Below, in pieces: positions 21,261-49,825 of a DNA stretch of 64,000 nt. The position numbers were made by a program, and so were the translations under genes. This DNA is from Candidatus Woesearchaeota archaeon B3_Woes (GTDB lineage: Archaea > Nanobdellota > Nanobdellia > Woesearchaeales > B3-WOES): positions 549,533 to 613,532 of the forward strand of contig NJBG01000001.1 of assembly GCA_005222965.1 (NCBI GenBank), in the 5' to 3' direction. The notes under the pieces were generated by a model. That model was not told the DNA's origin and made no database searches. It saw only the letters and a program-made list of their open reading frames with translations. Position 1 is the stretch's first letter. The number at the start of each line of letters is the position of its first letter.

Positions 21261-23738
21261 ATGGAAAAATCTAAACCAGAAATAAAGGAGAAAATAGTCG
21301 ACAGAGTCATCGAAGAAGAAATGAAACAGTCTTATTTAGATTACTCTATGTCAGTCATCATAGGCAGGGCATTGCCAGATGTCAGAGATGGACTAAAACC
21401 AGTCCATAGAAGAATTCTTTATGCTATGAATGACATGGGCATGTTGCATAACAAACCTTTCAAAAAATCTGCAAGAATTGTTGGAGAGTGCCTAGGAAAA
21501 TACCACCCACATGGAGATACTGCTGTTTATGATTCAATGGTCAGAATGGCTCAGGATTGGTCATTGCGTTATCCTTTAGTACAAGGCCAAGGAAATTTTG
21601 GAAGTGTTGATGGAGACAGACAGGCCGCAATGCGATATACTGAGGCAAGATTAAACAAAATATCTGAAGAAATGCTAAAAGACATAGACAAACAAACAGT
21701 TAAGTTTGTTCCCAACTTTGATAATAGCCTAAAAGAACCTTCTGTTTTACCTAGCAAAATCCCGAATCTATTAATTAATGGTTCATCAGGAATTGCAGTC
21801 GGAATGGCCACAAACATTCCACCGCATAACATGATAGAAGTTTGCGAAGCAATAACCACCACAATAAACAATCCAGAAATAACTGTTGATGAATTATTCA
21901 AAATAATAAAAGGCCCAGATTTTCCAACAGGAGGAATAATCTGCGGGAATAAACCAATTCTTCAGGCCTATAAAACAGGAAGAGGAAAAGTAATTGTAAG
22001 ATCTAAAACAGAAGTAATAGAAAAAAAACAAAAACAAGTCATAATCATAAAAGAAATACCTTACATGGTAAACAAAGCAGAGACAATAAAAGAAATAGCC
22101 AGATTAGTAAATGATAAAAAAATAAGAAACATTTCAGATATAAGAGATGAATCAGACAGAGAAGGAATGCGTGTTGTCATAGAGTTAACTAAAAACGCAA
22201 ATCCAGAAATTGTAATTAATCAATTATTCAGACACACAAGATTACAAGTTACTTTTGGAATTATTATGTTGGCTTTGGTCAACAATGAACCAAAAATACT
22301 AAACCTAAAACAATTAATCCAGGAATACATAAAACACAGACAAATTATAGTAAGAAGAAGAACAGAATTTGATCTTAAAAAAGCACAGGAAAGGCAGCAC
22401 ATACTATCTGGTCTGATAATTGCTCTAAACAATATCGATTCTATAGTCAAATTAATCAAAGCATCAAAAACAACAGAAGAAGCAAAAAAATCATTGATTG
22501 TTGACTATAAACTAACAGAAATACAAGCAAAAGCTGTGCTTGAAATGAGACTACAAAAATTGTCTTCTCTTGAACAACAAAAAATAAAACAAGAATATGA
22601 TGAACTAACAAAACTTATCGAAAAATTAAACAAAATTTTAGCAGATGAAAACAAAATCCTCAAAATAATCAAGCAAGAACTTGAAGAGGTAAAACAAAAT
22701 TATGGAGACAAAAGAAAAACATCCATAATTGAAGAAGAATATGAATCATTTGAGGAAGAAGAACTAATCAAACCAGAAGACAACATAATAACAATAAGCC
22801 ACACAGGCTATATCAAAAGATTACAGGTAAATCTATACAAACAACAAAAACGAGGTGGAAAAGGAGCTAGATCAGCTACAACAAAAGAAGAAGATTTCAT
22901 AGAAGAAATATTTGTAGCTAATACACACGATTATATCTTATTCTTCACAAACAAAGGAAAATTACATTGGTTAAAAGTATATCAAGTACCAGAAACAGGA
23001 AAACAAGCAAAAGGTTCAGCAATATCAAATTTGCTTCATCTACAAGAAGACGAAAAAATAAGCGCCTTTGTACCTATTAAAGATTTTAATAAAGGATATC
23101 TGATGATGGCCACAAAAAACGCAATAGTCAAAAAAACAAGCCTAAATGAATTTTCAAAACCAAGACGCGGCGGAATAATCGCAGTTAACCTAAAAAACGA
23201 CGATGAATTAATAAATGTACTCAATACATCAGGAAATGACCAAATTATGTTGGCAACAAAAAATGGCCAGGCAATAAGATTCAAAGAAACAGATATAAGG
23301 CCAACAGGAAGACAGGCAGCAGGAGTTAGAGGAGCTAGGCTAAAAGAAAAAGATAAAATAATCGATATGGTTAAGGCAGACGATACAAGAACCCTATTAA
23401 CAATAACAGAAAACGGTTATGGAAAAAGAACTTCTGTAAAAGCTTATAGATTAATATCAAGAGGGGGTTCAGGAGTTAGAAACATAATCTGCTCAGAAAG
23501 AAACGGCAGGGTTGTTGCAGTAAAATCAATCACAAACAACGACGACATAATGTTCATAAGCAAAAAAGGAATTACAATAAGAACCCCGGCAAAAGACCTA
23601 AGAATTATAGGAAGAAATACACAAGGTCTCAGACTTATGAGATTAAATAAAGGAGATAAGGTGGTTGCAGCTGCTAAAATTATTAAAGAAAATAATAATA
23701 CAGAACAACAAAATGAAAGCACTGGCAATAACCCATAA
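21261..23738 (+). CDS. gyrA: DNA gyrase subunit A
   Basis: [13 protein letters not shown] and the active-site region [11 protein letters not shown] are present. A C-terminal repeated beta-pinwheel region is present. Length is 825 aa. Confidence 0.95.
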
Positions 23739-25061: not shown

Positions 25062-26810
25062 ATGTTAAGAACTAACACATGCGGAGAATTAGACAAAAAA
25101 GACATTAATAATAAGATAGAGTTAGCAGGTTGGATGCACTCAAGAAGAGATCATGGTGGCTTAATATTTATAGATTTAAGGGACAGATATGGTCTAACCC
25201 AAATTGTTTTTGATCCTAAACACAACAAAAAAGTTCATTCTGTTGCAGAACACCTTAGAAGAGAGGACATAGTCCATATAAATGGCAAGGTTCGTGCTCG
25301 TGGCAAAGGTTTAGAAAACCCAAAATTAAAAACAGGAAAAATAGAAGTTTTAGTCGATTCTGTTGAAGTAATTGCAAAAGCAGCAACCCCTCCAATAGAA
25401 GTTGATGACAGGATTGAAGCAGGAGAAGAAATAAGATTAAAATACAGATATTTAGATCTAAGAAGACCAATCATGCAAAACAGATTATTGACAAGGCACA
25501 AAATTGCACAATCCACAAGAGAATACTTTGATAAACACAATTTTTTAGAAATTGAAACACCACTTTTAGTAAAATCAACACCAGAAGGGGCAAGAGACTA
25601 TATTGTTCCTTCAAGAGTTAATCTTGGGAAATTTTACGCACTGCCTCAAAGCCCACAGCTATACAAACAACTACTTATGATTTCTGGATGTGATAGGTAC
25701 TATCAAATTGCACGTTGTCTAAGAGACGAAGATTTGAGGATAGATAGACAACCAGAACATACTCAAATTGATTTTGAGATGAGCTTTGTAGATTCTAATG
25801 ATATAAGAGAGTTTATAGAAAACCTCTATAAACACTTATTTAAAGAGGTTCTTAATATAAAATTAGACAAATTCCCTATTCTTTCTTATAAAGAATCAAT
25901 GGATAGATTTGGAACAGACAAACCAGATTTAAGATTCGGTTTAGAATTAATTGATGTAACAGATATTGTAAAAAAGTCTGATTTTGAAGTATTTCAAAAA
26001 GTAGAACAAGTTAAATGTATAAATCCTAAAAAAGATTTCACAAGAAAAGAACTTGACGAATATATAGGTTTCTGCCAGAAAAACGAAGCAAAAGGCATGG
26101 CCTGGATGAGAGTTACTGATGAAGGCCTAGAATCTAATATTGTTAAATTCTTTAATCCCTCTCTTCAAAAAAAACTATTAGAAAAAACAAAAGCAAAAAA
26201 AGGATCTGTTTTAATGTTTATTGCAGACAAACAAAAAAATGTAGCTGATGTATTAAGCAGATTAAGATTAAAATTAAGAGATGATTTAAAACTAGTTAAA
26301 GAAAAAGATTTCAAATTTTGTTGGGTTGTTGATTTCCCATTATTTGCATATAATGAAGATGAAGACAGATGGGAACCAGAACATCATATGTTTTCAATGC
26401 CTAAACCAGAATTTGTAAAAGATTTTGAGAAAAAACCCAAAGAAGTTATAGGAGATTTATGGGATATTGTTCTTAATGGAACAGAATTAGGATCTGGATC
26501 AATTAGGGTAACTAATCCAAATGTACAGGAAAGAATAATGAAACTTATAGGATTAAATAAACAAGAAGCAGAGAAAAAATTCGGATTTTTACTACATGCT
26601 TATACATATGGTGCACCACCTCATGGAGGAATGGGGCTTGGTTTTGATAGATTAGTGGCTCTAATGTGCGGATTACAAGATATAAGGGAGATTATTGCAT
26701 TTCCAAAGAATAAAGCAGCACAATGTCCAATGGATGGAAGCCCAAGTGATGTTCCAGAAGACCATTTAAAGGAATTACACATTAAATCTGAAGATATTAA
26801 GGGAAAATAA
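25062..26810 (+). CDS. aspS: aspartyl-tRNA synthetase, bacterial type (with GAD insertion)
   Basis: 582 aa. Motifs are QSPQLYKQLLM, CLRDEDLRIDRQPEHTQIDFEMSF and GGMGLGFDRLVALM. A ~130-aa insertion between motifs 2 and 3 is typical of bacterial AspRS. Confidence 0.9.
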   Translation: MLRTNTCGELDKKDINNKIELAGWMHSRRDHGGLIFIDLRDRYGLTQIVFDPKHNKKVHSVAEHLRREDIVHINGKVRARGKGLENPKLKTGKIEVLVDSVEVIAKAATPPIEVDDRIEAGEEIRLKYRYLDLRRPIMQNRLLTRHKIAQSTREYFDKHNFLEIETPLLVKSTPEGARDYIVPSRVNLGKFYALPQSPQLYKQLLMISGCDRYYQIARCLRDEDLRIDRQPEHTQIDFEMSFVDSNDIREFIENLYKHLFKEVLNIKLDKFPILSYKESMDRFGTDKPDLRFGLELIDVTDIVKKSDFEVFQKVEQVKCINPKKDFTRKELDEYIGFCQKNEAKGMAWMRVTDEGLESNIVKFFNPSLQKKLLEKTKAKKGSVLMFIADKQKNVADVLSRLRLKLRDDLKLVKEKDFKFCWVVDFPLFAYNEDEDRWEPEHHMFSMPKPEFVKDFEKKPKEVIGDLWDIVLNGTELGSGSIRVTNPNVQERIMKLIGLNKQEAEKKFGFLLHAYTYGAPPHGGMGLGFDRLVALMCGLQDIREIIAFPKNKAAQCPMDGSPSDVPEDHLKELHIKSEDIKGK

Positions 26811-26885
26811 TTCTTTAAAACGATATATTTATATAAAAACAATTCTATTGTCTAAACAAGTAGTAAATATTTGTTTAGTATTAAT

Positions 26886-27578
26886 ATGAAAAGAGGTGTA
26901 AAATCAGTTTTTATTACTTTAAGTATTATTCTGACTATTTTTATTACTTTAAGTCTACTTGTAAATGCTGCTATTTTTAATAATAACTTAGATACAGGAT
27001 TAGTCTCATACTGGTCTTTTAATGGAAGCGCAAACGACGATCAAGGAAGTAATGACGGTTCTGTAAGTGGCGCAACTTTAGTAAACTCTTGTATATCAGG
27101 ACAAGCATATTCTTTTGATGGTTCTAATGATTATATTAATGCTGGAAAAGATTCTAGTTTACCTTCAACAGGAGTTATTACTGTTTCTGCGTGGATTAAT
27201 TTTACAGATTCCCAACATGCTGCCATTGCTGGAAGATTTATTGCACAAAACAGCCGCACAGGCAATGATTCATACATAGTCAATAATACAAATCTTTTAG
27301 CAGTATTCACAGATACAGGAGATATTGAACTTAAAGGAGATTGCAAAGTTCTAGCTTCTTGTGGTTCAGGAATATTTGAAATTTATAATAGCGGTATTGT
27401 TGCATCAATCAACTCAACAGGAGATTTATGCTTAGAAGCAGGAGATTGTACAATAGATGCCAGTTGTTCTGCAGGAAGCTTAAAAATAAAAGATGGAAGC
27501 GGAACAGTAGTATCTAGTATTAATAGTTCAGGAAGCCTATGTTATACAGGAAATTTAATTCAAAGAGGTTTTAGATAA
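26886..27578 (+). CDS. secreted/anchored LamG (ConA-like lectin) domain protein
   Basis: N-terminal anchor KSVFITLSIILTIFITLSLLV. LVSYWSFNGSANDDQGSNDGSVSGATLVNSCISGQAYSFDGSNDYINAG is a typical LamG N-terminal half. The C-terminus has a repeated GD(I/L)xLxxGDC motif. Confidence 0.65.
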   Translation: MKRGVKSVFITLSIILTIFITLSLLVNAAIFNNNLDTGLVSYWSFNGSANDDQGSNDGSVSGATLVNSCISGQAYSFDGSNDYINAGKDSSLPSTGVITVSAWINFTDSQHAAIAGRFIAQNSRTGNDSYIVNNTNLLAVFTDTGDIELKGDCKVLASCGSGIFEIYNSGIVASINSTGDLCLEAGDCTIDASCSAGSLKIKDGSGTVVSSINSSGSLCYTGNLIQRGFR

Positions 27579-27580
27579 AA

Positions 27581-28678
27581 ATGAAAAAAATTACACTAAT
27601 TATAACATTTTTACTAGTTTTGTTGCCTCTTCAAACATATGCTGCTGGTTATACTTCAGACGATGGCAAAGGATATCTTCTAAGTATTAGTGATGGAACT
27701 TTAGGAGGAGCAGGAACTAAAGCAGTATCTATACTGGCTTATAAATATGATTATGCTATTGAAACTACAACTCCTACTTATAATAATGGCAAATGGCATC
27801 ATGTTATTGGAGTATTTAATATTGACACTGGAACTGTAAAATTCTACATTAATGGATATTATATGGGCTCAACCACAAACACAAGTCTAACAGATTTAGA
27901 TATATCAAATGCAGATTTTTTAATCGGTAGTCTTTTACATATTAATACATCCGGAGAAAACAATGCAGATTATTTTAAAGGAATGATAGATGAAGTAGCT
28001 GTCTGGAATCGGGAATTAGACTCAACAGAAGTTTCTGCGCTTTATAATAATTATACTGATAAATGGCTTTGTGATGAGTGTGGAGATTCTAATATAAGTG
28101 GTGGAGAAGAGTGTGAAATTGATTATGACTGCCCAACATATTATGATAAATGTCATAACTCTACCCATATAAACCAAACAGCATCATCTTGCGGCAGTTG
28201 TTTATGTAGCTATCAAACAACCACTACTATGTGTGGTTCTAATGAACAATGCATAGTAAATGAATGTGTAGATCTTTCAGAAAGTGAATTTTATTTAGAT
28301 ACATGTGAAACAACATCAGATTGTGATGCTAATTATTGTTGTTATAGACCATATTCAAACATCAATGGAACATGTAGAAGTGCTCTTCCATCAGGAACAA
28401 CCAATGCTACTATTGAAACAAACTCTTGTCTTTGTTTAATATCCAGATCTGATTTAGGTTATGGCACAACATGTACTAATACAGGAAATTCTCCTTGTTG
28501 GGATGTAGATTCAGCACAATGCTGCGGCAACGAACCAACAGAGACATGGAACACAACACAATATTCAAGCGAATTTGTAGAAGATGTACTTATTAAAGGA
28601 ACATGCACATCAGGGGCATGGAAAACAAGAGAAGAAGCAGCACTTACATATTATGATATATGGTCAGAAGAAGAGTAA
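27581..28678 (+). CDS. secreted LamG domain protein with Cys-rich C-terminal half
   Basis: Signal peptide MKKITLIITFLLVLLPLQTYA. LamG signature: KWHHVIGVF...KFYINGYYMG...FLIGS...FKGMIDEVAVWNRELDSTEVSALYN. The following ~230 aa contain about 30 Cys. Confidence 0.7.
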   Translation: MKKITLIITFLLVLLPLQTYAAGYTSDDGKGYLLSISDGTLGGAGTKAVSILAYKYDYAIETTTPTYNNGKWHHVIGVFNIDTGTVKFYINGYYMGSTTNTSLTDLDISNADFLIGSLLHINTSGENNADYFKGMIDEVAVWNRELDSTEVSALYNNYTDKWLCDECGDSNISGGEECEIDYDCPTYYDKCHNSTHINQTASSCGSCLCSYQTTTTMCGSNEQCIVNECVDLSESEFYLDTCETTSDCDANYCCYRPYSNINGTCRSALPSGTTNATIETNSCLCLISRSDLGYGTTCTNTGNSPCWDVDSAQCCGNEPTETWNTTQYSSEFVEDVLIKGTCTSGAWKTREEAALTYYDIWSEEE

Positions 28679-28732: not shown

Positions 28733-29275
28733 ATGATACAAAAATGTAACACATACAAAGTATTAAAAGTATTTTTAGATGACCCTTTAAAGGGATTTAA
28801 GCTAAGGGAAATCTCAAGAATATTAAAATTAGGGTTGCCTTCAGTTTCAAAATATGTTAAAGATTTAGAAAAAACAAAATTAATTATTTCAAAAGAAAAA
28901 TATGGAAGTAAATTATGGTTTAGTAATAGGGAATCAAGATTATTTAGAATATACAAAAAATTTGAAACAATTAGATCCATAGAAGAAAGCAATTTAATCA
29001 AATATTTAGATAAAGAATTAAACTTTCCAACCATTATATTGTATGGATCACATGCACTAGGCGAAGATAGAAAAGAATCAGATATTGATTTGTTTATAAT
29101 AGCACCAAACAAAAAAAAAATAGAAACCAAACAATTTGAAAAAACACTTAAAAAAAAATTGCATTTATTCATTCACACAGAACACGAAATAAAACAAATG
29201 AAAATAAACAATAAAGAACTGCTTAATAATGTTTTAAATGGAGTTGTCTTAACTGGATACTTAAAGGTGTTATAA
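28733..29275 (+). CDS. minimal nucleotidyltransferase (MNT) with N-terminal wHTH-like region
   Basis: ILYGSHALGEDRKESDIDLFII matches the GSxxxG...SDxD MNT motif. The partner HEPN gene overlaps by 1 nt. Confidence 0.7.
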   Translation: MIQKCNTYKVLKVFLDDPLKGFKLREISRILKLGLPSVSKYVKDLEKTKLIISKEKYGSKLWFSNRESRLFRIYKKFETIRSIEESNLIKYLDKELNFPTIILYGSHALGEDRKESDIDLFIIAPNKKKIETKQFEKTLKKKLHLFIHTEHEIKQMKINNKELLNNVLNGVVLTGYLKVL

Positions 29276-29688
29276 TGAATGACTGGGAAAAATCAATAGA
29301 AGATGGAAAAGTTTTGAAAATATCCCTCAACCAAGAAAGAGCAAAATCATTAATGATATCCTCTTTAAAATTACTAAATATTATTGAAAAAATAAAATTA
29401 GATAAAGAAAATGGTTTTTTTATTTTAACAAATTACTATGATATTATCTTAGAATCACTGCATGCTTTGTTATACAAAAAAGGATATCAATCTTTAGATC
29501 ATTTAAGTATTGGGTATTATATAAAAGATGTACTAGATAACCAGGAATTTTTTAACATATTTGATAAATATAGAAAAACACGAAATAAAATTTTGTATTA
29601 TGGAAGAAACATAGACCCCGAGACAGCACAACAAGGAATAAAAGATCTAAAAAGATTGTATCAATTTGTTAAAAAGTTATTAGAATAA
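29275..29688 (+). CDS. HEPN domain protein (MNT partner)
   Basis: All-helical 137 aa with a TAATG overlap with the MNT gene. KYRKTRNKILYYG lies where the HEPN R-x4-6-H motif is expected, so the motif is degenerate. Confidence 0.6.
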   Translation: MNDWEKSIEDGKVLKISLNQERAKSLMISSLKLLNIIEKIKLDKENGFFILTNYYDIILESLHALLYKKGYQSLDHLSIGYYIKDVLDNQEFFNIFDKYRKTRNKILYYGRNIDPETAQQGIKDLKRLYQFVKKLLE

Positions 29689-29881: not shown

Positions 29882-29995
29882 TATGGCACAAAAAGATTAC
29901 AAACTGGAAATTATGAAACTTTTATCAAAAAAAACAAACGTTTAAATATCCAAATTCATAACAAATAAATGAGAAAGAAAAAAGAGGTGGTTTAA

Positions 29996-32900
29996 ATCGA
30001 AATCAAAAAAAGAGGAATATTTACTTTAGTTCTAACTTTTTTATTAATTTTTTGCACAACTTTAACATTAGCAGCAAACGAGTTTGTAATTGACGCCGCA
30101 ACAGGAAACGTGGGAATCGGAACGAGTAGTCCAAGTGAGAAATTGCATATACAAGATGGGAATCTTATAATTAATAATACACCTTCACAACCAGCTATAC
30201 AAATTTATCATTCTGACGCTAATCAATTAAGAGCTGCGATTGATGGGTATGGGAGAGCGGTTTTTGGTTACACTTCTGCTCCAGGTACAGGTCTGGCGAC
30301 AGGTACTACAGTTTATATTCTTGCTGGTGGTGCTTCTACAGTTCCTCTCAAAATAAGTGGCTCTGGAAGCGGTCATACAGGGAATCTATTTCAAGTTTGG
30401 AGAGATGGGACTATCCAAAGATTTGTAATACAAGCAGACGGAAACGTAGGAATTGGAACTAGTAGTCCTGGTCAGAAGTTGGATGTAGTAGGGAATATAC
30501 GTTTAAATAACGGAAATTATCTTCAAATAAATGATAGTTCTGGATATGAGAGGGTAAAGCTTACAAGAGCTGCGTTAGAATTTTATGAATCTGTTGGAAC
30601 TATCTCAAACACTTTTACTAACAGCCACATGAAACTTGGGAATTTAGGGTATGGCTCTCTTGCTACTTTTTTACAAAGTTCAGATAATGTAGTTAGGATT
30701 TGGGCAAATGGAGCGCTTTCTGTTGGGCAGTCTCTTATAAACAATACTTCTCCAGGAACAGGTGACCTTATTGTTGCAGGCAAAGTAGGAATCGGGACAA
30801 GTAGTCCTTCTTATCCCTTAGATGTTAATGGAACTATAAAAACAAATGGTGAAATTAGAATGGCAGAGCCTTCTATAATCAGATTAGGAACTGCAGGTTT
30901 AATCTGGGAGTCCGGGGCGAATTTGATAATACAAGAAGTAGGCAGGAACTTCTTTCTGGGAACAACAACAGAAAACGAACTGCAATTTAAAACAAACAAC
31001 ACTGCACGAATAAGTATTATGTCTGATGGTAAAGTAGGAATCGGAACAACAACCCCCTCACAAAAATTAACAGTCATCGGAACAGTAAACGCAACAAACT
31101 TTGTAGGAGACGGCTCAGGCTTAACAGGAGTAGGAGGCGGAGGAGGCACAGGAATATGGAACCGCTCTGGAACAAACGTATTTCTAAACAATAGTGGCGA
31201 TAAAGTAGGAATCGGGACGAGTAGTCCTTCAAACTCCTTGCAAATAGGAAACGCAATCTTTTTTAACGCAACGTCTGGAAATGTCGGTCTAGGTGAAGCA
31301 CCATTATCAAGCATTCGTATAAATGTACAAGGTAATCGAGTAATGAGATTTGAGAATGCAGCATTAGATGGATTTGAACTTGCTCAAATAAATACAAAAA
31401 CCTGGGGATTTAATCAATTATCTGGTGGACATACTTTTCAAATTCAAGCACATGCAAAGGTAAATAGTGATTTAACTGTTGACACAGACACACTTTTTGT
31501 TGATGCGAGCGAAAATGCAGTAGGAATCGGAACGGACTCTCCAGAAAGTGCATTACATATAATTGATAATCCTTCTGCCCCTGGAACAGCAAAATTAATT
31601 CTTGATAATACAGGAGGTTCCACAAATGATGAAGATAAAATAGAATTTAGGCACGGCGATTATGAACAAGCATATATCAAGACGATTCTAAATGTAGGAT
31701 GGCCTACAGACCTTGCTTTTGGCACAGCTACAGGCATGGGAAGTGGTTTAGATGAACGAATGAGAATTAAAAGCACTGGAAATGTAGGAATCAATACAAC
31801 AACACCATTAACAGCATTAGAAGTAGTAGGAACAATAACAGCAACAAACTTTGTAGGTGACGGCTCTGGCTTAACAGGTGTTGGTGGTAGTGGAGGCACA
31901 GGAATATGGAACCGCTCTGGAACAAACGTATTTCTAAACAATACTGGTGATAATGTAGGAATTGGAACAAGTAGTCCAAATGAATTACTTACAGTCAGTA
32001 ATAGTAATATTCTTCAAGAAGGAGGTGGAGGAATTTATGCTGTTCAAACTGTTGGAGGTTCTGATGTAAGATTTCAATATAACAAAGCAGGAGGAAATGC
32101 TTATTTAAGATTGATGGATGTTTCTAATAATACTGATTTTGAGTTTAATACAAATGGTGATTCTTGGTTGAATGGTGGGAATGTAGGAATTGGAACAGAT
32201 AGTCCAACAGCAGAACTGACAATTAAAAATTCTGCTGATAATACAGATATGTTAAGTTTAGAAAATGCTGCGGGAACAAGAGTGGCTAATTTTGGAACAG
32301 ATGTAAGTGGAGATGGTGTATTAATTGTGAGGGATTCTTCTGGAAATGTTAAACATTATTTAGATGGTGATACAAGCACAGATACTTATTTTAATGCAGG
32401 TAACGTAGGAATTGGGACAAATAGTCCTCTTTCTAAATTACAAATTGGTGATGGTTCTGGTACTGCGTGGACTAGCACTTCTTATCCTGCATTATGGATT
32501 TATGGATATGATAACGAAGCAGCTGTTGAAGGGTTTAGAGTTCAAGATGAAAATGATAATATTGATTTCAGATTAAAAAGTGTAGGGGATGGAGGAACAA
32601 CAGGGGCTACTGCTTATTTTAGGGGAAATGTGGGAATAGGGACGAGTAGTCCTGCAACATTATTACATACAAATTCGTCAGGGCAGAATTATTTGAAAGT
32701 TGAGACTACTGGCGCTTCTTCACAAGCTGCCCTACAATTAAAAACAGGCACCGCAAATGCCGACTGGATTACGTATATTCCCGAAAGTTCTACTGATTTG
32801 AGATTTTATCGTGGTGCAGATAGAATGGTATTGGATGCCTCAGGAAATCTTCAAATAGATGGTGACCTAACAACAAGCAGCCTAGCAAGTTGTGATACAA

Positions 32901-34213
32901 TTGATACAGATTCAAATGGACTTTTATCTTGTGGAACAGATGCATACTCAGCAAACACATGGAGAGGAATTGATGACTCCCCTGTAAATGGTGTTACTAC
33001 TGAATCAATATCCTCCAATTGGGCTTATGACCACGATGCAGCTTCAAGTGCACACCATGTAAAAACAGTAAACACAGACACCCAAGACTTGGGCACAAGC
33101 GGTACTACAATAACTTTAACAAATAGCCCTGCTGTTACAGCACCATATGCAACCTATTCTGGAAATACAAATTCATGTAATAAAGATGCAACATGTGAAA
33201 CAGGAAATATCCTAACAGGGGCAAATGGCTATTTGTACTTGGGTGGAACAGATATGTTCTTGCAGGACAACAGCGGTAACCTAGTCGTAAGTTCCTCTAG
33301 CACCGCCTCTTATAAATATGATTCTACCAACAATGGTGTTGGATTTTTTCAGATTGCTTCAGGAACTGATACAGTACTGAAGATTGACAATGCTGGAAAA
33401 GTCGGCATCGGCACAACAAGCCCAGCATCAAAATTAAGTGTTGGTGGCACTGGTAGTTCTAATTATGCTATATCTGGGCAAGGCGCGTTATATGGCGTTT
33501 TTGGCGCAACAGCAACCAATGGTGGAGCTGGTGTTTATGGTTACGCTAGTTCCGCTGCTACTTCTTATGGTCTCAGGGGCCATGCTACCAATGGTTATGG
33601 TGTATATGCATCTGGCTCTGTGGGTGCAGGATATATGTCAGGCAATCTTTATGTATCTGGGGTTTGCAGTGGTGGTGATTCTTGCAACCAAGATATTGCA
33701 GAAAAATGGGCGTCAGAAAAAGCATTAAAACATATCCATTGTGGTGAAGATAGATTTGATTATACAAATGAAATTATTCCAGATGACATGAAAGAGGATA
33801 ACCATCAATACAAATGCATATTAGACTCTTCCTTTGAACTAGAATTTGAACAAGGAGATGTTATTTGTTTTGATAAAGCTATTGATTCTGTTACTGTTAT
33901 AAGATATTGTGATAAATCCTATGACAAAACAGCACTATCAACACTAAGTTATCATGCAACAATGACTATTGGAGCAGATTATTATCCTTATCCGATTGCT
34001 TTAACAGGTAATATTCCAGTAAAGGTTATTTGTGACAACCCTATAGAAGTAGGTGACCCTTTAGTAACATCAAACAAACAAGGTTATGCAATGAAATTGG
34101 ATATTTCAGATATCACAACATTTAAAGAATTTCAGGAAAGAAATAATGCAATCTTTGCAAAAGCCCTGGAACCTTGTGATTCCGGAAAAAAACTAATTAG
34201 GGCTTGGATTTAA
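29996..34213 (+). CDS. giant secreted repeat protein (13x GNVGIGTxSP motif, tail-fibre-like) with distinct C-terminal domain
   Basis: The track ORF starts at GTG 30110, but the frame is open from 29996. The extension encodes a textbook signal peptide, IEIKKRGIFTLVLTFLLIFCTTLTLAANEF. The motif G(N/K)VGIGT(S/T)SPxxxLx(V/I) recurs 13 times. The C-terminal ~200 aa (CNQDIAEKW...) are non-repetitive. Confidence 0.85.
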   Translation: MEIKKRGIFTLVLTFLLIFCTTLTLAANEFVIDAATGNVGIGTSSPSEKLHIQDGNLIINNTPSQPAIQIYHSDANQLRAAIDGYGRAVFGYTSAPGTGLATGTTVYILAGGASTVPLKISGSGSGHTGNLFQVWRDGTIQRFVIQADGNVGIGTSSPGQKLDVVGNIRLNNGNYLQINDSSGYERVKLTRAALEFYESVGTISNTFTNSHMKLGNLGYGSLATFLQSSDNVVRIWANGALSVGQSLINNTSPGTGDLIVAGKVGIGTSSPSYPLDVNGTIKTNGEIRMAEPSIIRLGTAGLIWESGANLIIQEVGRNFFLGTTTENELQFKTNNTARISIMSDGKVGIGTTTPSQKLTVIGTVNATNFVGDGSGLTGVGGGGGTGIWNRSGTNVFLNNSGDKVGIGTSSPSNSLQIGNAIFFNATSGNVGLGEAPLSSIRINVQGNRVMRFENAALDGFELAQINTKTWGFNQLSGGHTFQIQAHAKVNSDLTVDTDTLFVDASENAVGIGTDSPESALHIIDNPSAPGTAKLILDNTGGSTNDEDKIEFRHGDYEQAYIKTILNVGWPTDLAFGTATGMGSGLDERMRIKSTGNVGINTTTPLTALEVVGTITATNFVGDGSGLTGVGGSGGTGIWNRSGTNVFLNNTGDNVGIGTSSPNELLTVSNSNILQEGGGGIYAVQTVGGSDVRFQYNKAGGNAYLRLMDVSNNTDFEFNTNGDSWLNGGNVGIGTDSPTAELTIKNSADNTDMLSLENAAGTRVANFGTDVSGDGVLIVRDSSGNVKHYLDGDTSTDTYFNAGNVGIGTNSPLSKLQIGDGSGTAWTSTSYPALWIYGYDNEAAVEGFRVQDENDNIDFRLKSVGDGGTTGATAYFRGNVGIGTSSPATLLHTNSSGQNYLKVETTGASSQAALQLKTGTANADWITYIPESSTDLRFYRGADRMVLDASGNLQIDGDLTTSSLASCDTIDTDSNGLLSCGTDAYSANTWRGIDDSPVNGVTTESISSNWAYDHDAASSAHHVKTVNTDTQDLGTSGTTITLTNSPAVTAPYATYSGNTNSCNKDATCETGNILTGANGYLYLGGTDMFLQDNSGNLVVSSSSTASYKYDSTNNGVGFFQIASGTDTVLKIDNAGKVGIGTTSPASKLSVGGTGSSNYAISGQGALYGVFGATATNGGAGVYGYASSAATSYGLRGHATNGYGVYASGSVGAGYMSGNLYVSGVCSGGDSCNQDIAEKWASEKALKHIHCGEDRFDYTNEIIPDDMKEDNHQYKCILDSSFELEFEQGDVICFDKAIDSVTVIRYCDKSYDKTALSTLSYHATMTIGADYYPYPIALTGNIPVKVICDNPIEVGDPLVTSNKQGYAMKLDISDITTFKEFQERNNAIFAKALEPCDSGKKLIRAWI
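31031..31230 (+). repeat. intragenic duplication, copy 1
   Basis: Near-identical to 31781-31980, an offset of exactly 750 nt. This includes a 52-nt exact match, ggaggcacaggaatatggaaccgctctggaacaaacgtatttctaaacaata. Confidence 0.85.
31781..31980 (+). repeat. intragenic duplication, copy 2
   Basis: See copy 1. The protein segments are VGDGSGLTGVGG(G/S)GGTGIWNRSGTNVFLNN(S/T)GD(K/N)VGIGTSSP. Confidence 0.85.
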
Positions 34214-34599: not shown

Positions 34600-34812
34600 A
34601 TGAAATTTAGAATAATTATGGAACAAGACGAAGATGGTATTTTTGTAGTTGAATGTCCATCATTACCTGGATGTGTTTCTCAGGGAAAATCAAGAGCAGA
34701 AGCCGTAAAAAACATCAAAGATGCTATGAAAGGTTATGTCCAAAGCTTAAAAAAACATAATGAAGCAATACCCCCTTCTATAAGGGAAGATACAATTGAA
34801 ATAAATGCCTAA
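34600..34812 (+). CDS. hicB: HicB-family antitoxin (UPF0150)
   Basis: EQDEDGIFVVECPSLPGCVSQGKSRAEAVKNIKDAMKGYVQSL is the typical HicB N-terminal fold signature. There is an 8-nt overlap with hicA. Confidence 0.8.
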   Translation: MKFRIIMEQDEDGIFVVECPSLPGCVSQGKSRAEAVKNIKDAMKGYVQSLKKHNEAIPPSIREDTIEINA

Positions 34813-35032
34813 ACTACCTGTTATTTCTGGATTGAAAGCTGTAAAAGCGCTTTCTAAATTAGGATATAGGATTGACCACCAAACAGGTTCTCATTTAATT
34901 CTTAGACACGAAAAAGAACCTCATAGAAGACTAACTATTCCCAATCACAAAGAATTATCCAAAGGAACGTTAAGAGCAATAATAAGACAAGCAGGTTTAA
35001 CAAGAGAAGAATTTTTAAGATTAGTAAGATAA
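34805..35032 (+). CDS. hicA: HicA-family mRNA interferase toxin
   Basis: LKAVKALSKLGYRIDHQTGSHLILRHEKEPHRRLTIPNHKELSKGTLRAIIRQAGL matches the HicA/YcfA pattern, including the GSH motif. Confidence 0.8.
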   Translation: MPKLPVISGLKAVKALSKLGYRIDHQTGSHLILRHEKEPHRRLTIPNHKELSKGTLRAIIRQAGLTREEFLRLVR

Positions 35033-35044
35033 ATTCTATCTACT

Positions 35045-35155
35045 CAATTCACCCATCTCAGCCAATCAACATACAACTTCTTAGTAAAATCAGGTTGCCA
35101 AATTACTAGTAATATTAGATTGTTTTTTTAGTAGAATTATGTTGCTAAAACAAAA
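35045..35155 (+). repeat. cassette-boundary repeat, copy B (core only)
   Basis: It starts 13 nt after the hicA-1 stop. The core is TTCACCCATCTCAGCCAATCAACATACAACTTCTTAGTAAAATCAGGTTGCCAAATTACTAGTAATATTAGATTGTTTTTTTAGTAGAATTATGTTGCTAAAACAA. TAGTA sub-repeats start at 35082, 35107 and 35129. Confidence 0.85.
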
Positions 35156-35240
35156 ACATATAAATATAATGTGCTGAAGATTAGACCAAGATTTCTTTTT
35201 AAAAAGAGAAACATAAGAAATGTCAAATATTATTCTATGC

Positions 35241-35265
35241 TTCGGAAATTTGAAAAATTTCCGAA
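35241..35265. promoter_or_regulatory. 11-bp perfect inverted repeat TTCGGAAATTT-gaa-AAATTTCCGAA (putative operator of hicBA-2)
   Basis: Read directly from the sequence. It ends 35 nt upstream of the hicB-2 ATG. Confidence 0.5.
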
Positions 35266-35299
35266 AGATTTAAATAATTCCAAAGATTAAAAAAGTATC

Positions 35300-35503
35300 A
35301 TGACAGGCTTTAATATGATTATAGAAAAAGGAGAAGATGGATATTTGATATCTGAAGTAGTTGAGCTTCCAGGATGTCATACACAAGCAAAAAATATGAA
35401 TGAACTTCTTGAAAGAACAAAAGAAGCTATTTCTCTTTATTTAACAGAACAGGGAAGCGAATTTAAAGATAAGTTTATTGGTGTACAAAAATTAGAGGTT
35501 TAG
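35300..35503 (+). CDS. hicB: HicB-family antitoxin (second copy)
   Basis: IIEKGEDGYLISEVVELPGCHTQAKNMNELLERTKEAISLYL. The stop abuts the hicA-2 ATG. Confidence 0.8.
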   Translation: MTGFNMIIEKGEDGYLISEVVELPGCHTQAKNMNELLERTKEAISLYLTEQGSEFKDKFIGVQKLEV

Positions 35504-35731
35504 ATGTCAAAACTTCCTTTAATAAGTGCTAACGAATTAATTAAGATTCTTGTAAAAATGGGATTTAAGATTATGAGGCAATCTGGAAGCCATATATTTC
35601 TCAAACATATAGATGGAAGAACAACTGTTGTTCCAAATCATCCCGGAGAAAAAATTGATAGAGGATTATTAAATAAAATCCTTAGAAAAGATGTACAGAT
35701 TTCTCGAGAACAGTTTTTGAAATTATTATAA
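35504..35731 (+). CDS. hicA: HicA-family toxin (second copy)
   Basis: ANELIKILVKMGFKIMRQSGSHIFLKHIDGRTTVVPNHPGEKIDRGLLNKILR. Confidence 0.8.
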   Translation: MSKLPLISANELIKILVKMGFKIMRQSGSHIFLKHIDGRTTVVPNHPGEKIDRGLLNKILRKDVQISREQFLKLL

Positions 35732-35856
35732 CTTATTTTTAAATTACAAAGAGATAAAACTCGCATTTATTTTTATTACATCAGTGTATTATAAAAATAT
35801 GTTTTTTGTTCCATCACTATAGAAACATTTATATATAAGTAAGATAATCTTATTTT

Positions 35857-36108
35857 ATGGAAATAACAAAACTGAGCACAAAAGGACAAATTGTAATACC
35901 TGAATCTATGAGAAAAGGTTTAGAAGTTGGTAGCGCATTTAAAGTAATTAAAAAAGGAGAACTTATAATTTTAAAAGAAGTAGAAGGACTCACTAAGGAA
36001 GAAATGGAAGAAATGAAAGAACTTGATAAGATTTGGAAAGGTATAGATGATGGTAAGGGAGTAACCATGAATAAAAAAGAGTTTCTTAAGGAACTAGAAT
36101 CTTGGTAA
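35857..36108 (+). CDS. AbrB/SpoVT-type antitoxin
   Basis: MEITKLSTKGQIVIPESMRKGLEV is a swapped-hairpin AbrB/MazE signature. The toxin gene follows after 4 nt. Confidence 0.75.
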   Translation: MEITKLSTKGQIVIPESMRKGLEVGSAFKVIKKGELIILKEVEGLTKEEMEEMKELDKIWKGIDDGKGVTMNKKEFLKELESW

Positions 36109-36112
36109 GAGA

Positions 36113-36370
36113 ATGTCTGACGAAATAAAGAAAATAACTCGTTCTCCAAAATTTATCAAACAGACCAAACAACTAGATGAATTCAGTCTCAAAAAGCTAG
36201 GGAAACAAATATTAAAAATCTTAGAAAATCCCAATGTTGGAAAACCTTTGAAATATAAAAGAGGTGAACGGTCACTCTATATTAAACCATTCAGATTAGT
36301 TTATGCTGTAAGAGAAGATGAGGTTATTTTATTAAAATTTGACCATAGAAAAAGAGTTTATAGAGATTAA
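36113..36370 (+). CDS. relE: RelE/ParE-family toxin
   Basis: LENPNVGKPLKYKRGERSLYIKPFRLVYAVREDEVILLKFDHRKRVY matches the RelE/StbE pattern. Confidence 0.75.
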   Translation: MSDEIKKITRSPKFIKQTKQLDEFSLKKLGKQILKILENPNVGKPLKYKRGERSLYIKPFRLVYAVREDEVILLKFDHRKRVYRD

Positions 36371-40488: not shown

Positions 40489-41571
40489 ATGAAAATAGCA
40501 ATATTCCATAATTATATGGATAACATAGGGGGTGCTGAAAAAGTGACCTTGACTCTTGCAGGGGAATTAGATGCTGACATAATCACAACAAATATCAATA
40601 GAAAAGCTATAGAAAATATGGGTTTCAAAAACATTAGAATAAAAAGCATTGGAAAAATTCCTATAAATGCTCCATTCAAACAACAGTTTGCGTTGTATAA
40701 GTTCAGAAAACTCGATCTAAAAGAAAAATATGATTTTTTTATCATAGATGGGGATTGGGCAATATCTGGAGCAGTCAAGAATAAACCAAATTTATGGTAT
40801 GTCCATTCACCTATAAGAGAGATATGGGATTTGTATGAATACACTAGACAACACAGTGTCCCTTTAATCCTAAGACCTATTTTTGATATTTGGGTAAAAT
40901 ACAATCGTTACCTTAACAGGAAGTATGTCAAACATGTTGACAAGATAACTTGCAACTCAAAGAACACCCAAAAAAGGGTTAAGAAATATCTGAATAGGGC
41001 TGCTGTTGTGATAAACCCGCCAATTGAGACTTCTAAATTTCATTATAAAAAGACAGGAGGTTACTGGTTAAGCGTTAATAGACTCATTACACATAAAAGA
41101 GCAGATATGCAAATAAAAGCTTTTGCAAAACTGCTTGATGAAAAACTAATCGTTGTTGGCTGTTATGAAAAATCAAGACATTTTACTGCATATGCAAATT
41201 ATATAAAAAAAATTAAGCCAAAGAACATTACTTTGCTAAATGGGATTGGTTCTAATCAATTGATAAATCTCTATGCTAATTGTAAGGGTTTTATTACAAC
41301 ATCCAAAGATGAAGATTTTGGAATGGCTCCTGTTGAAGCAATGGCTTCTGGAAAACCAGTTATTGCTCCAAATGAAGGGGGATATAAAGAAACCGTTGTT
41401 GATGGAGTTACTGGAAAGTTAATAGACGATATCAGTGTTGATAAATTAATCAAGTCTATCCAAGAAGTAAGCAAAAACCCTAAAAAATATAAAAATACTT
41501 GTTTAAAACAGGCAAAGAAATTTGATACAAAAATTTTCATTAAAAAAATAAAAGAACAGATGGCTACATAA
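40489..41571 (+). CDS. glycosyltransferase family 4
   Basis: EDFGMAPVEAMASGKPVIAPNEGG is the E-x7-E GT4 signature. Confidence 0.8.
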   Translation: MKIAIFHNYMDNIGGAEKVTLTLAGELDADIITTNINRKAIENMGFKNIRIKSIGKIPINAPFKQQFALYKFRKLDLKEKYDFFIIDGDWAISGAVKNKPNLWYVHSPIREIWDLYEYTRQHSVPLILRPIFDIWVKYNRYLNRKYVKHVDKITCNSKNTQKRVKKYLNRAAVVINPPIETSKFHYKKTGGYWLSVNRLITHKRADMQIKAFAKLLDEKLIVVGCYEKSRHFTAYANYIKKIKPKNITLLNGIGSNQLINLYANCKGFITTSKDEDFGMAPVEAMASGKPVIAPNEGGYKETVVDGVTGKLIDDISVDKLIKSIQEVSKNPKKYKNTCLKQAKKFDTKIFIKKIKEQMAT

Positions 41572-41572
41572 A

Positions 41573-42805
41573 ATGAATATCTGCTTTGTCATACACACCG
41601 ATTTTATTGAATCCTCCTATGGCGGTATAGAGACCTATTTAAAAAATCTGTCGCTTGAGCTTGTTAAAAATGGTCATGAAGTTCACATTATATGCTGCAC
41701 CGGGAAAAAAATTACTGATTATGTGTATAAGGGCATTCATATTCACAGGGTCTGTTCAGGGGTGGTGTTCTTTCACCCTCTTTTATTAAAAATCTTTCCT
41801 CCTTCTAGAATTATTGATAAATACTTTTACCACACCACCGTAAACTTAACCATTGGATGGAGGATTTATCGAAAGTTTAAGAAACTTCACAAAAGAAAAC
41901 CCTTTGATGTTGTTGAATGCGATGACACAGCTGGTTTAGGTGTGTTCTTTCCCCTGTGTAGTCGCGTCAGGTTTATAACCAGAATGCATACTTCATGGAC
42001 CATGGTTGCACTACTTAACAAAGAACAGGTTACCTTAGACAAAAAAATTGTGTATTTCCTTGAAAGATTACAAATTAAAAAGAGTGACGCCTTGAATGCA
42101 GATAGCTTTTCTCTGAAGAAAAGATCCTCTAATTTCTTTAACATAGATCCTTCAAGAATTGACGTTACTTATTATGGTATTGACATCTCAAAGTATGAAT
42201 CTATTTCCAAGAAAAGGATAACAAAACAGGATTACATCCTTTACTTTGGAAGGTTAGAGGAAAGAAAAGGTATGCGACTTCTTGCACGTGCTCTGCCAAA
42301 GGTTTTTTCAAAGCATCCCAATCTAAAAATGGTATTTGTCGGAAATCACCATGTTGAAACAAAACACAGCCGCCTAATAAAACACTTTGATGCGAAGAGG
42401 CATATACGTGGAAAAAACAAGCCGTTTGCAAAGAACATTATGTTCATCAAACACCTTCCTCACAAAAACCTGAATCCTATCATAAAAAATGCAAAATTGG
42501 TGGTACTTCCATCTACATGGGAAGCTTTCGGCTTCACCTGTCTGGAATCAATGGCTTTGGGAAAGCCTGTCTTGGCTACGAGCGGAAGCGGTTTTGAAGA
42601 GCAAATACTCGAGGATGAAAAATACGGATTTCTGGTAAAGCCCAACAACGCAAAAGCTCTCGCAAATAAAATTCTTATATGTCTGAAGAGAAAAGATTTA
42701 GATATAGTAGGAAAAAGGGCTAAAAATAGAGCTAAATTTTTCAGTAATGAAAAAATAACAAAAGAAATGATAGATTATTACAAAAAGGTAAGTATGAAAA
42801 CATAA
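41573..42805 (+). CDS. glycosyltransferase family 4
   Basis: N-terminal YGGIETY, plus EAFGFTCLESMALGKPVLATSGSGFEE. Confidence 0.8.
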   Translation: MNICFVIHTDFIESSYGGIETYLKNLSLELVKNGHEVHIICCTGKKITDYVYKGIHIHRVCSGVVFFHPLLLKIFPPSRIIDKYFYHTTVNLTIGWRIYRKFKKLHKRKPFDVVECDDTAGLGVFFPLCSRVRFITRMHTSWTMVALLNKEQVTLDKKIVYFLERLQIKKSDALNADSFSLKKRSSNFFNIDPSRIDVTYYGIDISKYESISKKRITKQDYILYFGRLEERKGMRLLARALPKVFSKHPNLKMVFVGNHHVETKHSRLIKHFDAKRHIRGKNKPFAKNIMFIKHLPHKNLNPIIKNAKLVVLPSTWEAFGFTCLESMALGKPVLATSGSGFEEQILEDEKYGFLVKPNNAKALANKILICLKRKDLDIVGKRAKNRAKFFSNEKITKEMIDYYKKVSMKT

Positions 42806-42826
42806 AATAAATTTTGGATATAAAAA

Positions 42827-44101
42827 ATGAATAAAAATCCCAAGAAAAATTTAAGAATAGCCATCATACATGATGATTTTTCCTTGTGTGGTGGAGGAGA
42901 AAAATTAGTTGCAATACTTGCTAAAGGACTTTCTAAAAAAGGTATAGAAGTGGATATAATAACATATAATTTTACAGAAGAACCCAAAAAAATAATCCCA
43001 AAAGGGATTAAAATTAAAACCATTATCAATAAAAAATACCCCTTTCATGACCATAATGTAAGAAAGTATTTATTCTCCAAATTAAATTTAAAAAAAAAAT
43101 ATGATTTGTTTATCTTTAGTGGTTATTTCTGCTTGTATGCATCAAAGATAAACAAACCAAACATTCTTTATTGCCATAATGTTAGAAAACCATATCTGTC
43201 AACACAAAAAAGATTTGAAGAAAAACCAAACAAAAGACAAGTCCAAGCAAAATTAGATTTAATAGATAATTCATTCCTTGGAAAGAGTTGGACATTTTTA
43301 TATAAAATAAAAAATAAATTCATTAAGAAAAAAATCCCAAGAAAAATCTCAGAAAAAATAGAACTTATTCGTTTTTTATTTGCAATCTCCCCTCATCCAA
43401 TATTAATAAAATACGCCATAAAACCTCTCACAGAAGAAGAGGAAATCAGAAAGGAGATTAATTATATACAAAAAATTATAGTGAACAGCCTTACTATTAA
43501 AAAAGATGCTAAAGAGTATTATAAAAGAGAATCCATAATTATACACCCCCCTATTGAAACAAAAAAATTTCATTATAAAAAAAATAAAAATTTTTGGATT
43601 TCTATAAATAGAATTGATCCCCATAAAAGAGTAGAATTACAATTAAAAGCATTTTCTAAAATGCCTAATGAAAAACTTTATATTATTGGCCATATACAAA
43701 ATCAAAAATATTATGAATTTCTTAAAAAAATAAAACCCAATAATGTGAAATTCTTAGGAGTTATTAATGAAGATAAATTAATTAAAAAATTAAGTGAATG
43801 CAAGGGAATGGTATTCACAGCAAAAAAAGAGGATTTTGGAATGGCTCCTGTTGAAGCAATGGCTTCTGGTAAGCCAGTGATAGCTCCAAACGAAGGGGGG
43901 TGTAAAGAAACAATTATTAATGAAAAAACCGGAATATTAATAAATAATATAAATGAGGATAAAATAATAAGAGCAGTAGAGAAGATAAACAAGAATCCTG
44001 AGAAGTATAAAAATGCATGTTTGAGGCAAGCACGAAAATTTGATGTTGAAGTTTTTATTAAAAAAATGACAGAAGAAATAAGGGATTCTCTGGTTCAATA
44101 A
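42827..44101 (+). CDS. glycosyltransferase family 4 (paralog of 40489-41571)
   Basis: EDFGMAPVEAMASGKPVIAPNEGG is encoded by a stretch nearly identical in nucleotides to 41320-41390. Confidence 0.8.
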   Translation: MNKNPKKNLRIAIIHDDFSLCGGGEKLVAILAKGLSKKGIEVDIITYNFTEEPKKIIPKGIKIKTIINKKYPFHDHNVRKYLFSKLNLKKKYDLFIFSGYFCLYASKINKPNILYCHNVRKPYLSTQKRFEEKPNKRQVQAKLDLIDNSFLGKSWTFLYKIKNKFIKKKIPRKISEKIELIRFLFAISPHPILIKYAIKPLTEEEEIRKEINYIQKIIVNSLTIKKDAKEYYKRESIIIHPPIETKKFHYKKNKNFWISINRIDPHKRVELQLKAFSKMPNEKLYIIGHIQNQKYYEFLKKIKPNNVKFLGVINEDKLIKKLSECKGMVFTAKKEDFGMAPVEAMASGKPVIAPNEGGCKETIINEKTGILINNINEDKIIRAVEKINKNPEKYKNACLRQARKFDVEVFIKKMTEEIRDSLVQ

Positions 44102-44103
44102 AA

Positions 44104-44916: not shown

Positions 44917-44930
44917 GTAGGGATATTCTA

Positions 44931-46959: not shown

Positions 46960-46963
46960 AATG

Positions 46964-48492: not shown

Positions 48493-48632
48493 ATCTCCCC
48501 ATATTATAAATATTTTTTCTGAATAAATAACTTTATTTTAGTATATAAATACAATTCACTGAAATTATAAAAACCAGATACAATATTCTTTTTTGTTATT
48601 AAGATCATTAAATTTACTAAAAACATTTTAAA

Positions 48633-49760: not shown

Positions 49761-49825
49761 AAAAAGAATATTATCAAATTATTATTTAAATTTATGGGAT
49801 AATCACATTTACCAGAAGGATAAAT

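Follow-up and report, generated by a model that had tools for sequence, protein, structure and literature searches.

We analysed a 64,000-nucleotide (nt) stretch of the genome of Candidatus Woesearchaeota archaeon B3_Woes (GenBank assembly GCA_005222965.1, contig NJBG01000001.1, positions 549,533 to 613,532 of the forward strand; this whole stretch is called the window, and all coordinates are given in its own numbering). A long, repeat-rich gene at 29996-34213 in this window probably specifies an exported cellular fibre of the tail-fibre and mosaic adhesive trimer (MAT) kind, or did so until very recently. MAT fibres are described as surface fibres of Bdellovibrio bacteriovorus whose trimeric beta-helices and beta-prisms are intertwined (Caulton et al. 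2024, PMC10769870). The fibre gene is the sole gene of its kind in the 1.02-Mb genome, and its predicted product is a plausible cell-attachment fibre.

The fibre frame lies on the forward strand and comprises 1405 codons, which are open between an in-frame TAA at 29993-29995 and the TAA stop at 34211-34213. The mechanical open reading frame (ORF) call begins only at 30110 (30110-34213, GTG start, 1367 amino acids (aa)), because from 29996 on there is no ATG, GTG or TTG ahead of that position. The core motif VG[IL][GN][TE] occurred 13 times in the protein, at aa 39, 151, 264, 347, 404, 430, 509, 597, 654, 730, 804, 879 and 1136 (nucleotide positions in Table 1), and 11 of the 13 copies read exactly VGIGT. 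When the protein was shuffled 2000 times, the mean number of motif copies was 0.04 and the maximum was 2, which confirmed the 13-motif repeat protein described in an initial annotation of this DNA. The motif spacing of 50-110 aa given there was roughly right, with 9 of the 12 spacings falling at 57-113 aa, but not exact, since the full range was 26-257 aa. Gly (13.2%), Thr (10.2%), Ser (9.3%) and Asn (7.9%) are abundant in the protein. At the nucleotide level the motif family appeared as a 38-nt unit with 10 true copies, and a 201-nt segment is duplicated within the gene. The non-repetitive C-terminal part starts where the initial annotation had placed it, with C1230 at nt 33683 and D1233 at nt 33692.

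Library scans placed the whole protein in no Pfam or NCBIfam family, and no lectin or enzyme domain was recognised in the stalk by either library. Among the PHROG families, tail-fibre families were matched strongly (phrog_9942, E = 1.4e-38; phrog_18345, 6.3e-28). A phmmer search of all PDB sequences returned matches to Bdellovibrio only, namely 8ond (Bd2133, 3.5e-6), 8ojn, 8onb and 8onc (6.6e-6 each) and 8oml (0.042), and the HMMER alignment put the motifs of the window's protein onto those of Bd2133. The capping-loop consensus of MAT fibres is printed as V-G-G/N-pi-X-X-P-X-X-X-L (PMC10769870), and the VGIGTxSPxxxL of the window fits it given one extra Ile or Leu between V-G and G/N, in agreement with the direct alignments. 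With aa 30-430 as query, a word-indexed search in which 8000 proteins were scored gave 3023 stalk homologues at E<=1e-5. Among the 119 homologues listed, 41 carried Peptidase_S74 (PF13884) and four were named "tail fiber domain-containing protein" (from Elusimicrobiota, Verrucomicrobia and an unclassified bacterium). A conserved module at aa 987-1023 was present in 14 other fibres from unrelated sources at 57-88% identity, often several times per protein and up to five times; 8 of these 14 fibres had a precomputed Peptidase_S74 assignment. These comparisons indicate that, at the level of sequence, the stalk is homologous to tail fibres and MAT fibres and that its motif is their capping loop. 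The statement in the initial annotation that the motif typifies tail-fibre-domain proteins was thus borne out by the PHROG families, the MAT structures, the names and the S74 assignments.

To characterise the relatives of the C-terminal domain, an exhaustive HMMER search of 1.84 billion representatives was made, which yielded 359 relatives at E<=1e-3, 39 at E<=1e-10 and 14 at E<=1e-30. Among the best 150 relatives, the domain was at the very C-terminus in 110 and internal in 40. Pfam found no family in 29 of 40 relatives scanned and varied fronts in the rest: LVIVD repeats in five of the 40, and NosD/beta-helix, collagen, surface Ig-like, H-lectin and GH43_C in one each. One LVIVD protein (P0060) also had a weak Peptidase_G2 match (9.7e-4). 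From the window's C-terminal domain and 44 short matches we built an alignment of 45 sequences (A1), the consensus of which contains D-I-A-E, G-D-V-V, Y-D, G-V-V-S-T, A-L-x-G-R-V-P-V-K-V, G-D-L-L-V-T-S, P-G-Y-A-M-K and G-K-A-L-E. The A1 profile matched gp12 of phage phi29 (6qz9, 3.8e-4; 3suc, 4e-3; the isolated C-terminal fragment 3gqh, 0.31), and in this alignment D-I-A-E sits on the S-D-F-A-E of gp12, in which the cut falls between Ser and Asp. PF11962 (Peptidase_G2, the intramolecular chaperone autoproteolytic cleavage domain) was matched at E<=1 by 13 of the 45 family members, with a best value of 3.3e-6; the window's own domain fell outside PF11962 at the curated threshold. PF13884 (S74) had no match in the whole protein or in its C-terminal 239 aa.

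An AlphaFold2 (AF2) model made from A1 had a mean predicted local distance difference test score (pLDDT) of 80, with residues 1-45 below 50 and most of residues 67-239 above 90. When this model was compared with 48,161 chains by VIA-align, 3gqh_A ranked first (Z 13.1, root-mean-square deviation 2.1 A, 107 residues, 21% identity), with model residues 67-239 lying opposite gp12 residues 692-853; model residue 67 is D1233. Among the viral models of BFVD there were 41 matches at E<=1e-3, including proteins named "preneck appendage protein", "tail protein" and "tail fiber protein". Mature gp12* is given as residues 1-691 (PMC6542822) and the 3gqh chain begins at 692, which places the gp12 cut between 691 and 692. 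The gp12 chaperone is described as being removed after folding, and chains that lack it as aggregating (PMC3357383, PMC6542822); the body of the phi29 chaperone is reported to be beta-stranded, unlike the S74 type (PMC4690869). Both the sequence and the fold alignment point to the same predicted autocleavage site in the window's protein (Table 1). With 11 fragments set aside, 138 relatives extended far enough upstream to be scored, and 118 of them kept D-x-A-E. The crystal form 3suc, which is uncleaved, departs from the wild-type chain 6qz9 at one Asp and at the Glu of D-F-A-E, which is Gln there; this suggests that the Glu matters for gp12 cleavage. Judged from the profile and the model, the C-terminal domain is a distant relative of the phi29 gp12 auto-chaperone that belongs to the same superfamily but is not a Pfam member. 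Of the two intramolecular-chaperone types that the initial annotation had proposed for this end of the protein, S74 or G2, the G2 type of phi29 gp12 was the one found.

The distribution of sequence conservation along the fibre was uneven. The form of the C-terminal domain seen in the window is shared by only three other full-size proteins (P0002, P0151 and P0152). Relative to P0002, the last ~300 aa were 68% identical and the rest ~30%; relative to P0151, identity was 75% over aa 19-167, 65% over the last 272 aa and below 33% in the middle. The first module was found again in P0168 at 78% identity, where it follows a LamG domain inserted after the first capping loop. P0156 was 45% identical over the first ~330 aa and ends in S74. 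Relatives with the same leader therefore have different ends or inserts, namely G2 in P0002 and P0151, S74 in P0156 and the LamG insert in P0168. Despite its S74 end, P0156 was 88% identical to the window's fibre over aa 1026-1067, which we regard as evidence, read from the sequences, of mosaic exchange between fibres. The initial annotation had proposed a survey of whether homologues vary mainly in the C-terminal tip, and the opposite was found, with 65-68% identity at the C-terminus compared with ~30% in mid-stalk. As the best-conserved part of the protein, the C-terminal domain is probably a folding cap that can be removed, and not a binding tip that varies. A conserved cap and first module flanking a diverging middle would fit a chaperone.

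The beginning of the gene is less straightforward. An ATG at 29969, the ancestral start, opens M-R-K-K-K-E-V-V, which is followed by the in-frame TAA at codon 9 and then by the leader, a predicted signal-peptide-like or anchor segment. The leader is common to P0002, P0151, P0168 and P0156, which read K-K-(E/D)-V-(V/I)-K-I-R-I here and all have Lys at the position of the TAA (4/4). Recoding of this TAA was rejected because TAA is the main stop codon of the genome, where it terminates 309 of 479 long ORFs. A Shine-Dalgarno-like motif, GAGGTG, lies 5 nt before an ATC at 29996; motifs of this kind precede 24% of the long ORFs, compared with 8% at a control position. The stop could result from a wrong base call or consensus, from a nonsense mutation of very recent date or from variation within the population, or it could be bypassed by non-canonical restart at the ATC. 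Since the remaining 4.2-kb frame is intact, the fibre gene has been under selection until very recently at least. The signal peptide given in the initial annotation would correspond to this hydrophobic leader, which is reachable only past an in-frame stop or through a non-canonical start.

Of the known systems, MAT fibres resemble the window's fibre most extensively. As described for them, a conserved module follows the signal peptide and the C-terminal ends vary, six ends being S74, two new beta-sandwiches, two tumour necrosis factor-like domains and a C-type lectin; one fibre was shown to bind prey glycans (PMC10769870). The two share a long Gly/Ser/Thr-rich stalk with the capping loop V-G-x-G/N-small-x-x-P-x-x-x-L, direct sequence similarity, ends that are swapped among close relatives, and the fact of being a cellular and not a viral gene; the predicted export leader of the window's fibre and the conserved module behind it may correspond to the signal peptide and first module of MAT fibres. 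The window's fibre differs in its archaeal host, in its phi29-gp12/G2-type end domain and in being encoded once per genome, compared with 21 copies in Bdellovibrio. The word "archaea" is absent from the main text of the MAT paper (PMC10769870). With the phi29 gp12 pre-neck appendage (3gqh, 3suc, 6qz9; PF11962), which is a trimeric beta-helical protein, the window's fibre shares the fold and the C-terminal position of the end domain; the low identity, the absence of a PF11962 match, the residue before the cut and an extra insert set the two domains apart, and the MAT-type stalk of the window's protein contrasts with the enzymatic right-handed beta-helix of gp12. S74 fibres (K1F endosialidase, T5 pb1, Bd3182) have the same stalk family and the logic of a self-removing C-terminal folding cap, which is a prediction for the window's protein, and the same-leader relative P0156 provides a link to them. 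Unlike these fibres, the window's protein has no match to the S74 family with its S-D-x-x-x-K catalytic motif. A link of such fibres to these archaea was not found in the literature searched, which consisted mostly of paper listings and did not extend to the MAT supplementary lists of end domains; in PMC11329633, the only fibre-like structures mentioned are "antennae" on the host cell.

On this basis, the following course of events can be proposed for the fibre. After leader-driven export, aa 1233-1405 would put three chains in register. The Gly/Ser/Thr-rich stalk, the homology of which is apparent from the alignments above, would then zip into an intertwined beta-helix/beta-prism interrupted by 13 capping loops (VGIGTxxPxxxL). 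The chaperone may remove itself by a cut before D1233 of D-I-A-E, as the gp12 alignment suggests, leaving a product of ~1200 aa per chain that, in rough proportion to Bdellovibrio fibres, would be some tens of nanometres long. The conservation pattern suggests that the first module would be cell-proximal in a surface-anchored fibre and that the variable mosaic middle and distal part (aa ~170-1130) would carry binding specificity. By analogy with MAT and phage fibres, binding of surface glycans or proteins on another cell or substrate would be the most likely role in adhesion.

Related genes occur in a minority of genomes of the same order. A query with the single domain matched 6 of 60 other genomes. 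With the A1 profile at E<=1e-5, 32 of 201 genomes were matched (the window's own included); as counted from the match table, the matches reached profile positions of at least 221, the chaperone domain proper, in 20 genomes (19 of 200 others), and in the other 12 they were limited to the stalk-motif part of the profile. The open frames of the matched genes ranged from 73 to 5377 aa, and one genome had three tandem copies and a fourth elsewhere. We inspected eight relatives' loci for gene context. A LamG protein adjoined or lay near the fibre gene in three of them (L033, L035 and L036), an association that is suggestive only. An S74-ended fibre stood beside a G2-ended one at L029, and a fibre with a phage-depolymerase beta-sandwich end (Phage_depo_C) stood beside a G2-ended one at L034.

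Several further features of the relatives were recorded. In genome G157, a gene of ~520-560 aa (L029 2934-4613 and 8368-9942; L030 3177-4760 and 12766-14316) directly precedes each of four fibre genes. These preceding genes belong to no Pfam family, have a common N-terminal motif and may be dedicated fibre partners; no counterpart was found beside the window's fibre gene. Genome G167 (L036 5427-19001) has three tandem fibre paralogues of ~815-840 aa, all G2-ended, and after them a 2077-aa protein that combines three LamG domains with Ig-like domains. In many relatives' fibres (L029-L036; P0022, P0056) a P-G-H...G-x-F motif directly follows the leader (e.g. A-N-D-P-G-H-D, P-N-P-G-H-S-A). It marks a second type of proximal module and is absent from the window's fibre.

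The genome is assembled in 4 contigs, is 96% complete and has 30% GC. The window contains archaeal genes (PCNA, a primase with small- and large-subunit domains, a Hef-type helicase-nuclease and HTH_10) with housekeeping genes alongside. The archaeal origin assumed in the initial annotation agrees with these marker genes, and the size and completeness of the assembly fit a small-genome archaeon of the symbiotic type. Upstream of the fibre gene lie an aspartyl-tRNA synthetase (AspRS) gene, two LamG-type ORFs and a nucleotidyltransferase/HEPN pair. The initial annotation had described two secreted LamG proteins here; both ORFs are LamG-type and have a hydrophobic N-terminus as judged by eye, but the match of the first is weak (Table 1). 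Downstream lie two HicB/HicA pairs, an AbrB-like/RelE-like pair and a PD-(D/E)XK protein. Toxin-antitoxin-type pairs thus flank the fibre gene on both sides, and the region looks like a variable island. The fibre gene has 38% GC compared with ~30% for the genome. Horizontal transfer inferred from GC was rejected: GC content at third codon positions (GC3) was 0.214, within the range of the neighbouring genes (0.14-0.36), and the excess comes from Gly, Ala, Ser and Thr codons, so the higher GC reflects amino-acid composition and not recent import.

Elsewhere in the window, a 510-aa ORF at 9658-11190 on the reverse strand matched OTCace_N and OTCace together with PyrI and PyrI_C, an apparent PyrB-PyrI fusion, and an ORF that runs off the window (1-1215, reverse strand) matched both the small and the large primase subunit families, an apparent fused archaeal primase. 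Bacterial-type genes were present in this archaeal window, namely AspRS with a GAD domain (25062-26810), GatA/GatB (54386-57291) and gyrase subunit A (21261-23738). A cluster at 40489-50704 contains three GT4 glycosyltransferases, a GT2 glycosyltransferase, a sulfotransferase, an ATP-binding cassette (ABC) transporter ATPase and a cytidylyltransferase-adenosine phosphosulfate (APS) kinase fusion, which suggests synthesis of a sulfated surface glycan. No tRNA genes or Rfam families were found in the 64-kb window.

Table 1. Coordinates of the fibre gene's features and of neighbouring genes in the window.
Feature	Position (nt)	Strand	Remarks
Ancestral start ATG 29969 and 7 codons, then in-frame TAA 29993-29995 (codon 9)	29969-29995	+	
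Leader	29996-30076	+	Basic stretch, then hydrophobic aa 8-27 ending L-A-A before N28; read from translation
Conserved first module, aa 19-167	30050-30496	+	75% identity to P0151, 78% to P0168
Stalk, aa 28-1232, carrying 13 capping-loop motifs	30077-33691	+	
V of each motif	30110, 30446, 30785, 31034, 31205, 31283, 31520, 31784, 31955, 32183, 32405, 32630, 33401	+	
Internal 201-nt duplication	31027-31227, second copy 31777-31977	+	83% identity
Conserved fibre module N-T-W-R-G-I-D-D...S-S-N-W-A-Y-D-H, aa 987-1023	32954-33064	+	
Segment aa 1026-1067	33071-33196	+	88% identity with S74-ended P0156
Predicted autocleavage site, between Q1232 and D1233	33689-33694	+	D-I-A-E on gp12 S-D-F-A-E; fold alignment opens at D1233, opposite gp12 692
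C-terminal domain, aa 1233-1405	33692-34210	+	phi29-gp12-like (Peptidase_G2-type), putative intramolecular chaperone
LamG-type ORF 1	26871-27578	+	Laminin_G_3 weak match 1e-3, profile positions 1-57 only
LamG-type ORF 2	27581-28678	+	Laminin_G_3 8.2e-18, profile positions 41-151, then Cys-rich tail
Nucleotidyltransferase/HEPN pair, toxin-antitoxin type	28733-29688	+	Directly upstream of fibre gene
Two HicB/HicA pairs and AbrB-like/RelE-like pair	34600-36370	+	Directly downstream of fibre gene

Several results weigh against an exported, self-trimming fibre. Since codon 9 is TAA and the leader has none of ATG, GTG or TTG ahead of it, the fibre gene may be off, broken or mis-sequenced in this assembly. 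Neither Pfam, even at E<=10, nor PHROG found anything in the last 239 aa. Fold and profile comparisons of the C-terminus had been proposed in the initial annotation; the A1 profile and the exhaustive fold comparison reached gp12, but the PDB matches of Foldseek all stayed above E = 1e-3, the top ones being to capsid decoration proteins and to the base of the phi29 head fibre, and 3gqh reached only 0.086. The fold also occurs in capsid decoration proteins that are not cleaved (Z 8-11). The residue before the predicted cut is Gln and not Ser as in gp12, and it varies across the family, Ala, Gly and Ser being the commonest; in the window's lineage a Cys-containing insert of ~45 aa separates D-I-A-E from the first core strand. 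An AF2 monomer model of the stalk (aa 561-801, alignment of 21 rows) was unusable (pLDDT 52.6, predicted template modelling score 0.23).

These results can be set against four other explanations, which partly overlap with a cellular fibre. The gene could be a recently inactivated pseudogene or an "off" variant, so that the family is real and this copy is not made owing to the codon-9 TAA. We consider this unlikely, but it deserves real weight: the codon is the genome's main stop, the same-leader relatives all have Lys there, and the next canonical start, the GTG at 30110, would leave out the leader. On the other hand, the other 1405 codons are fully open in a genome of 30% GC, so any inactivation must be very recent; a miscalled base, or a minority allele picked up in the consensus, would give an identical picture, and the GAGGTG before the ATC may allow non-canonical restart. 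It is also unlikely, though worth considering, that the C-terminal domain stays uncleaved and is retained as a distal knob, serving as a binding tip or trimer clamp like the capsid-decoration proteins. Stable trimeric decoration proteins do have the same fold (HFTV1, Z 11.0; Sf11, 9.9; phi29 gp8.5, 8.6-8.7), and the Gln at a variable position, the lineage-specific insert and the internal location of the domain in a part of the best 150 relatives would agree with retention. Cleavage is favoured by the retention of the Asp and Glu of D-x-A-E here and in most relatives, by the 3suc crystal form, which is uncleaved and differs from 6qz9 at exactly that Glu and one other residue, and by the conservation of the domain, which is a better fit to a folding module than to a specificity tip.

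A structural envelope component, either S-layer-associated or part of a cell-cell matrix and without a role in host recognition, is improbable. No ligand is indicated for the fibre, its stalk has no recognised lectin or enzyme domain and the gene is single-copy; however, a core role in the envelope is hard to reconcile with a domain that just 19 of 200 other genomes of the order were found to have, the protein resembles receptor-binding proteins in its mosaic, rapidly diverging middle and in the ends swapped among close relatives, and the homologues described as experimentally studied are adhesins (PMC10769870). Least probable of all is a viral tail-fibre gene of a provirus or provirus remnant in place of a cellular adhesin. 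Such an origin would agree with the phage tail-fibre PHROGs as best family matches, with phage proteins as the best matches of the C-terminal fold and with the location between toxin-antitoxin modules, typical of a variable region. Nevertheless, no capsid, portal, terminase, tail-tube or integrase gene was found by Pfam and PHROG in the 39 long ORFs of the window or in the 14 nearest neighbours, housekeeping genes flank the region, GC3 matches that of the neighbours, and a tblastn search of 50,697 phage records with the C-terminal domain as query was negative. In addition, the N-terminal export leader, which is common to the relatives, is a cellular feature, and further genomes of the order also have the domain, often as multiple copies next to genes for other surface proteins. 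An exported cellular fibre remains the reading we favour.

A broader and decidedly speculative extension, which we rate as rather improbable, is that small archaea of the symbiotic type in this order keep a shuffled, Bdellovibrio-like toolkit of recognition fibres. In it, one leader/base module would be joined to interchangeable stalk segments, to LamG lectin inserts and to either of two unrelated caps that remove themselves (S74 or phi29/G2), some pieces being up to 88% identical between fibres with different caps; the single fibre of this genome would be turned on and off at the population level by the stop at codon 9. If this were true, attachment specificity would be varied by recombination and switching.

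To our knowledge, it is largely unknown how small-genome, host-dependent archaea find and hold their partners. All parts of the window's fibre are of known kinds and the stalk family is very large in bacteria, so the finding is useful rather than surprising. A modest gain is that a sizeable family mostly missed by Pfam, that of the 359 cluster representatives, can now be named as a distant branch of the self-cleaving chaperone of phi29 gp12. For the organism itself, a long, predicted exported fibre that is homologous to the prey-recognition fibres of Bdellovibrio and to the receptor-binding fibres of phages would provide a concrete, expressible candidate for attachment.

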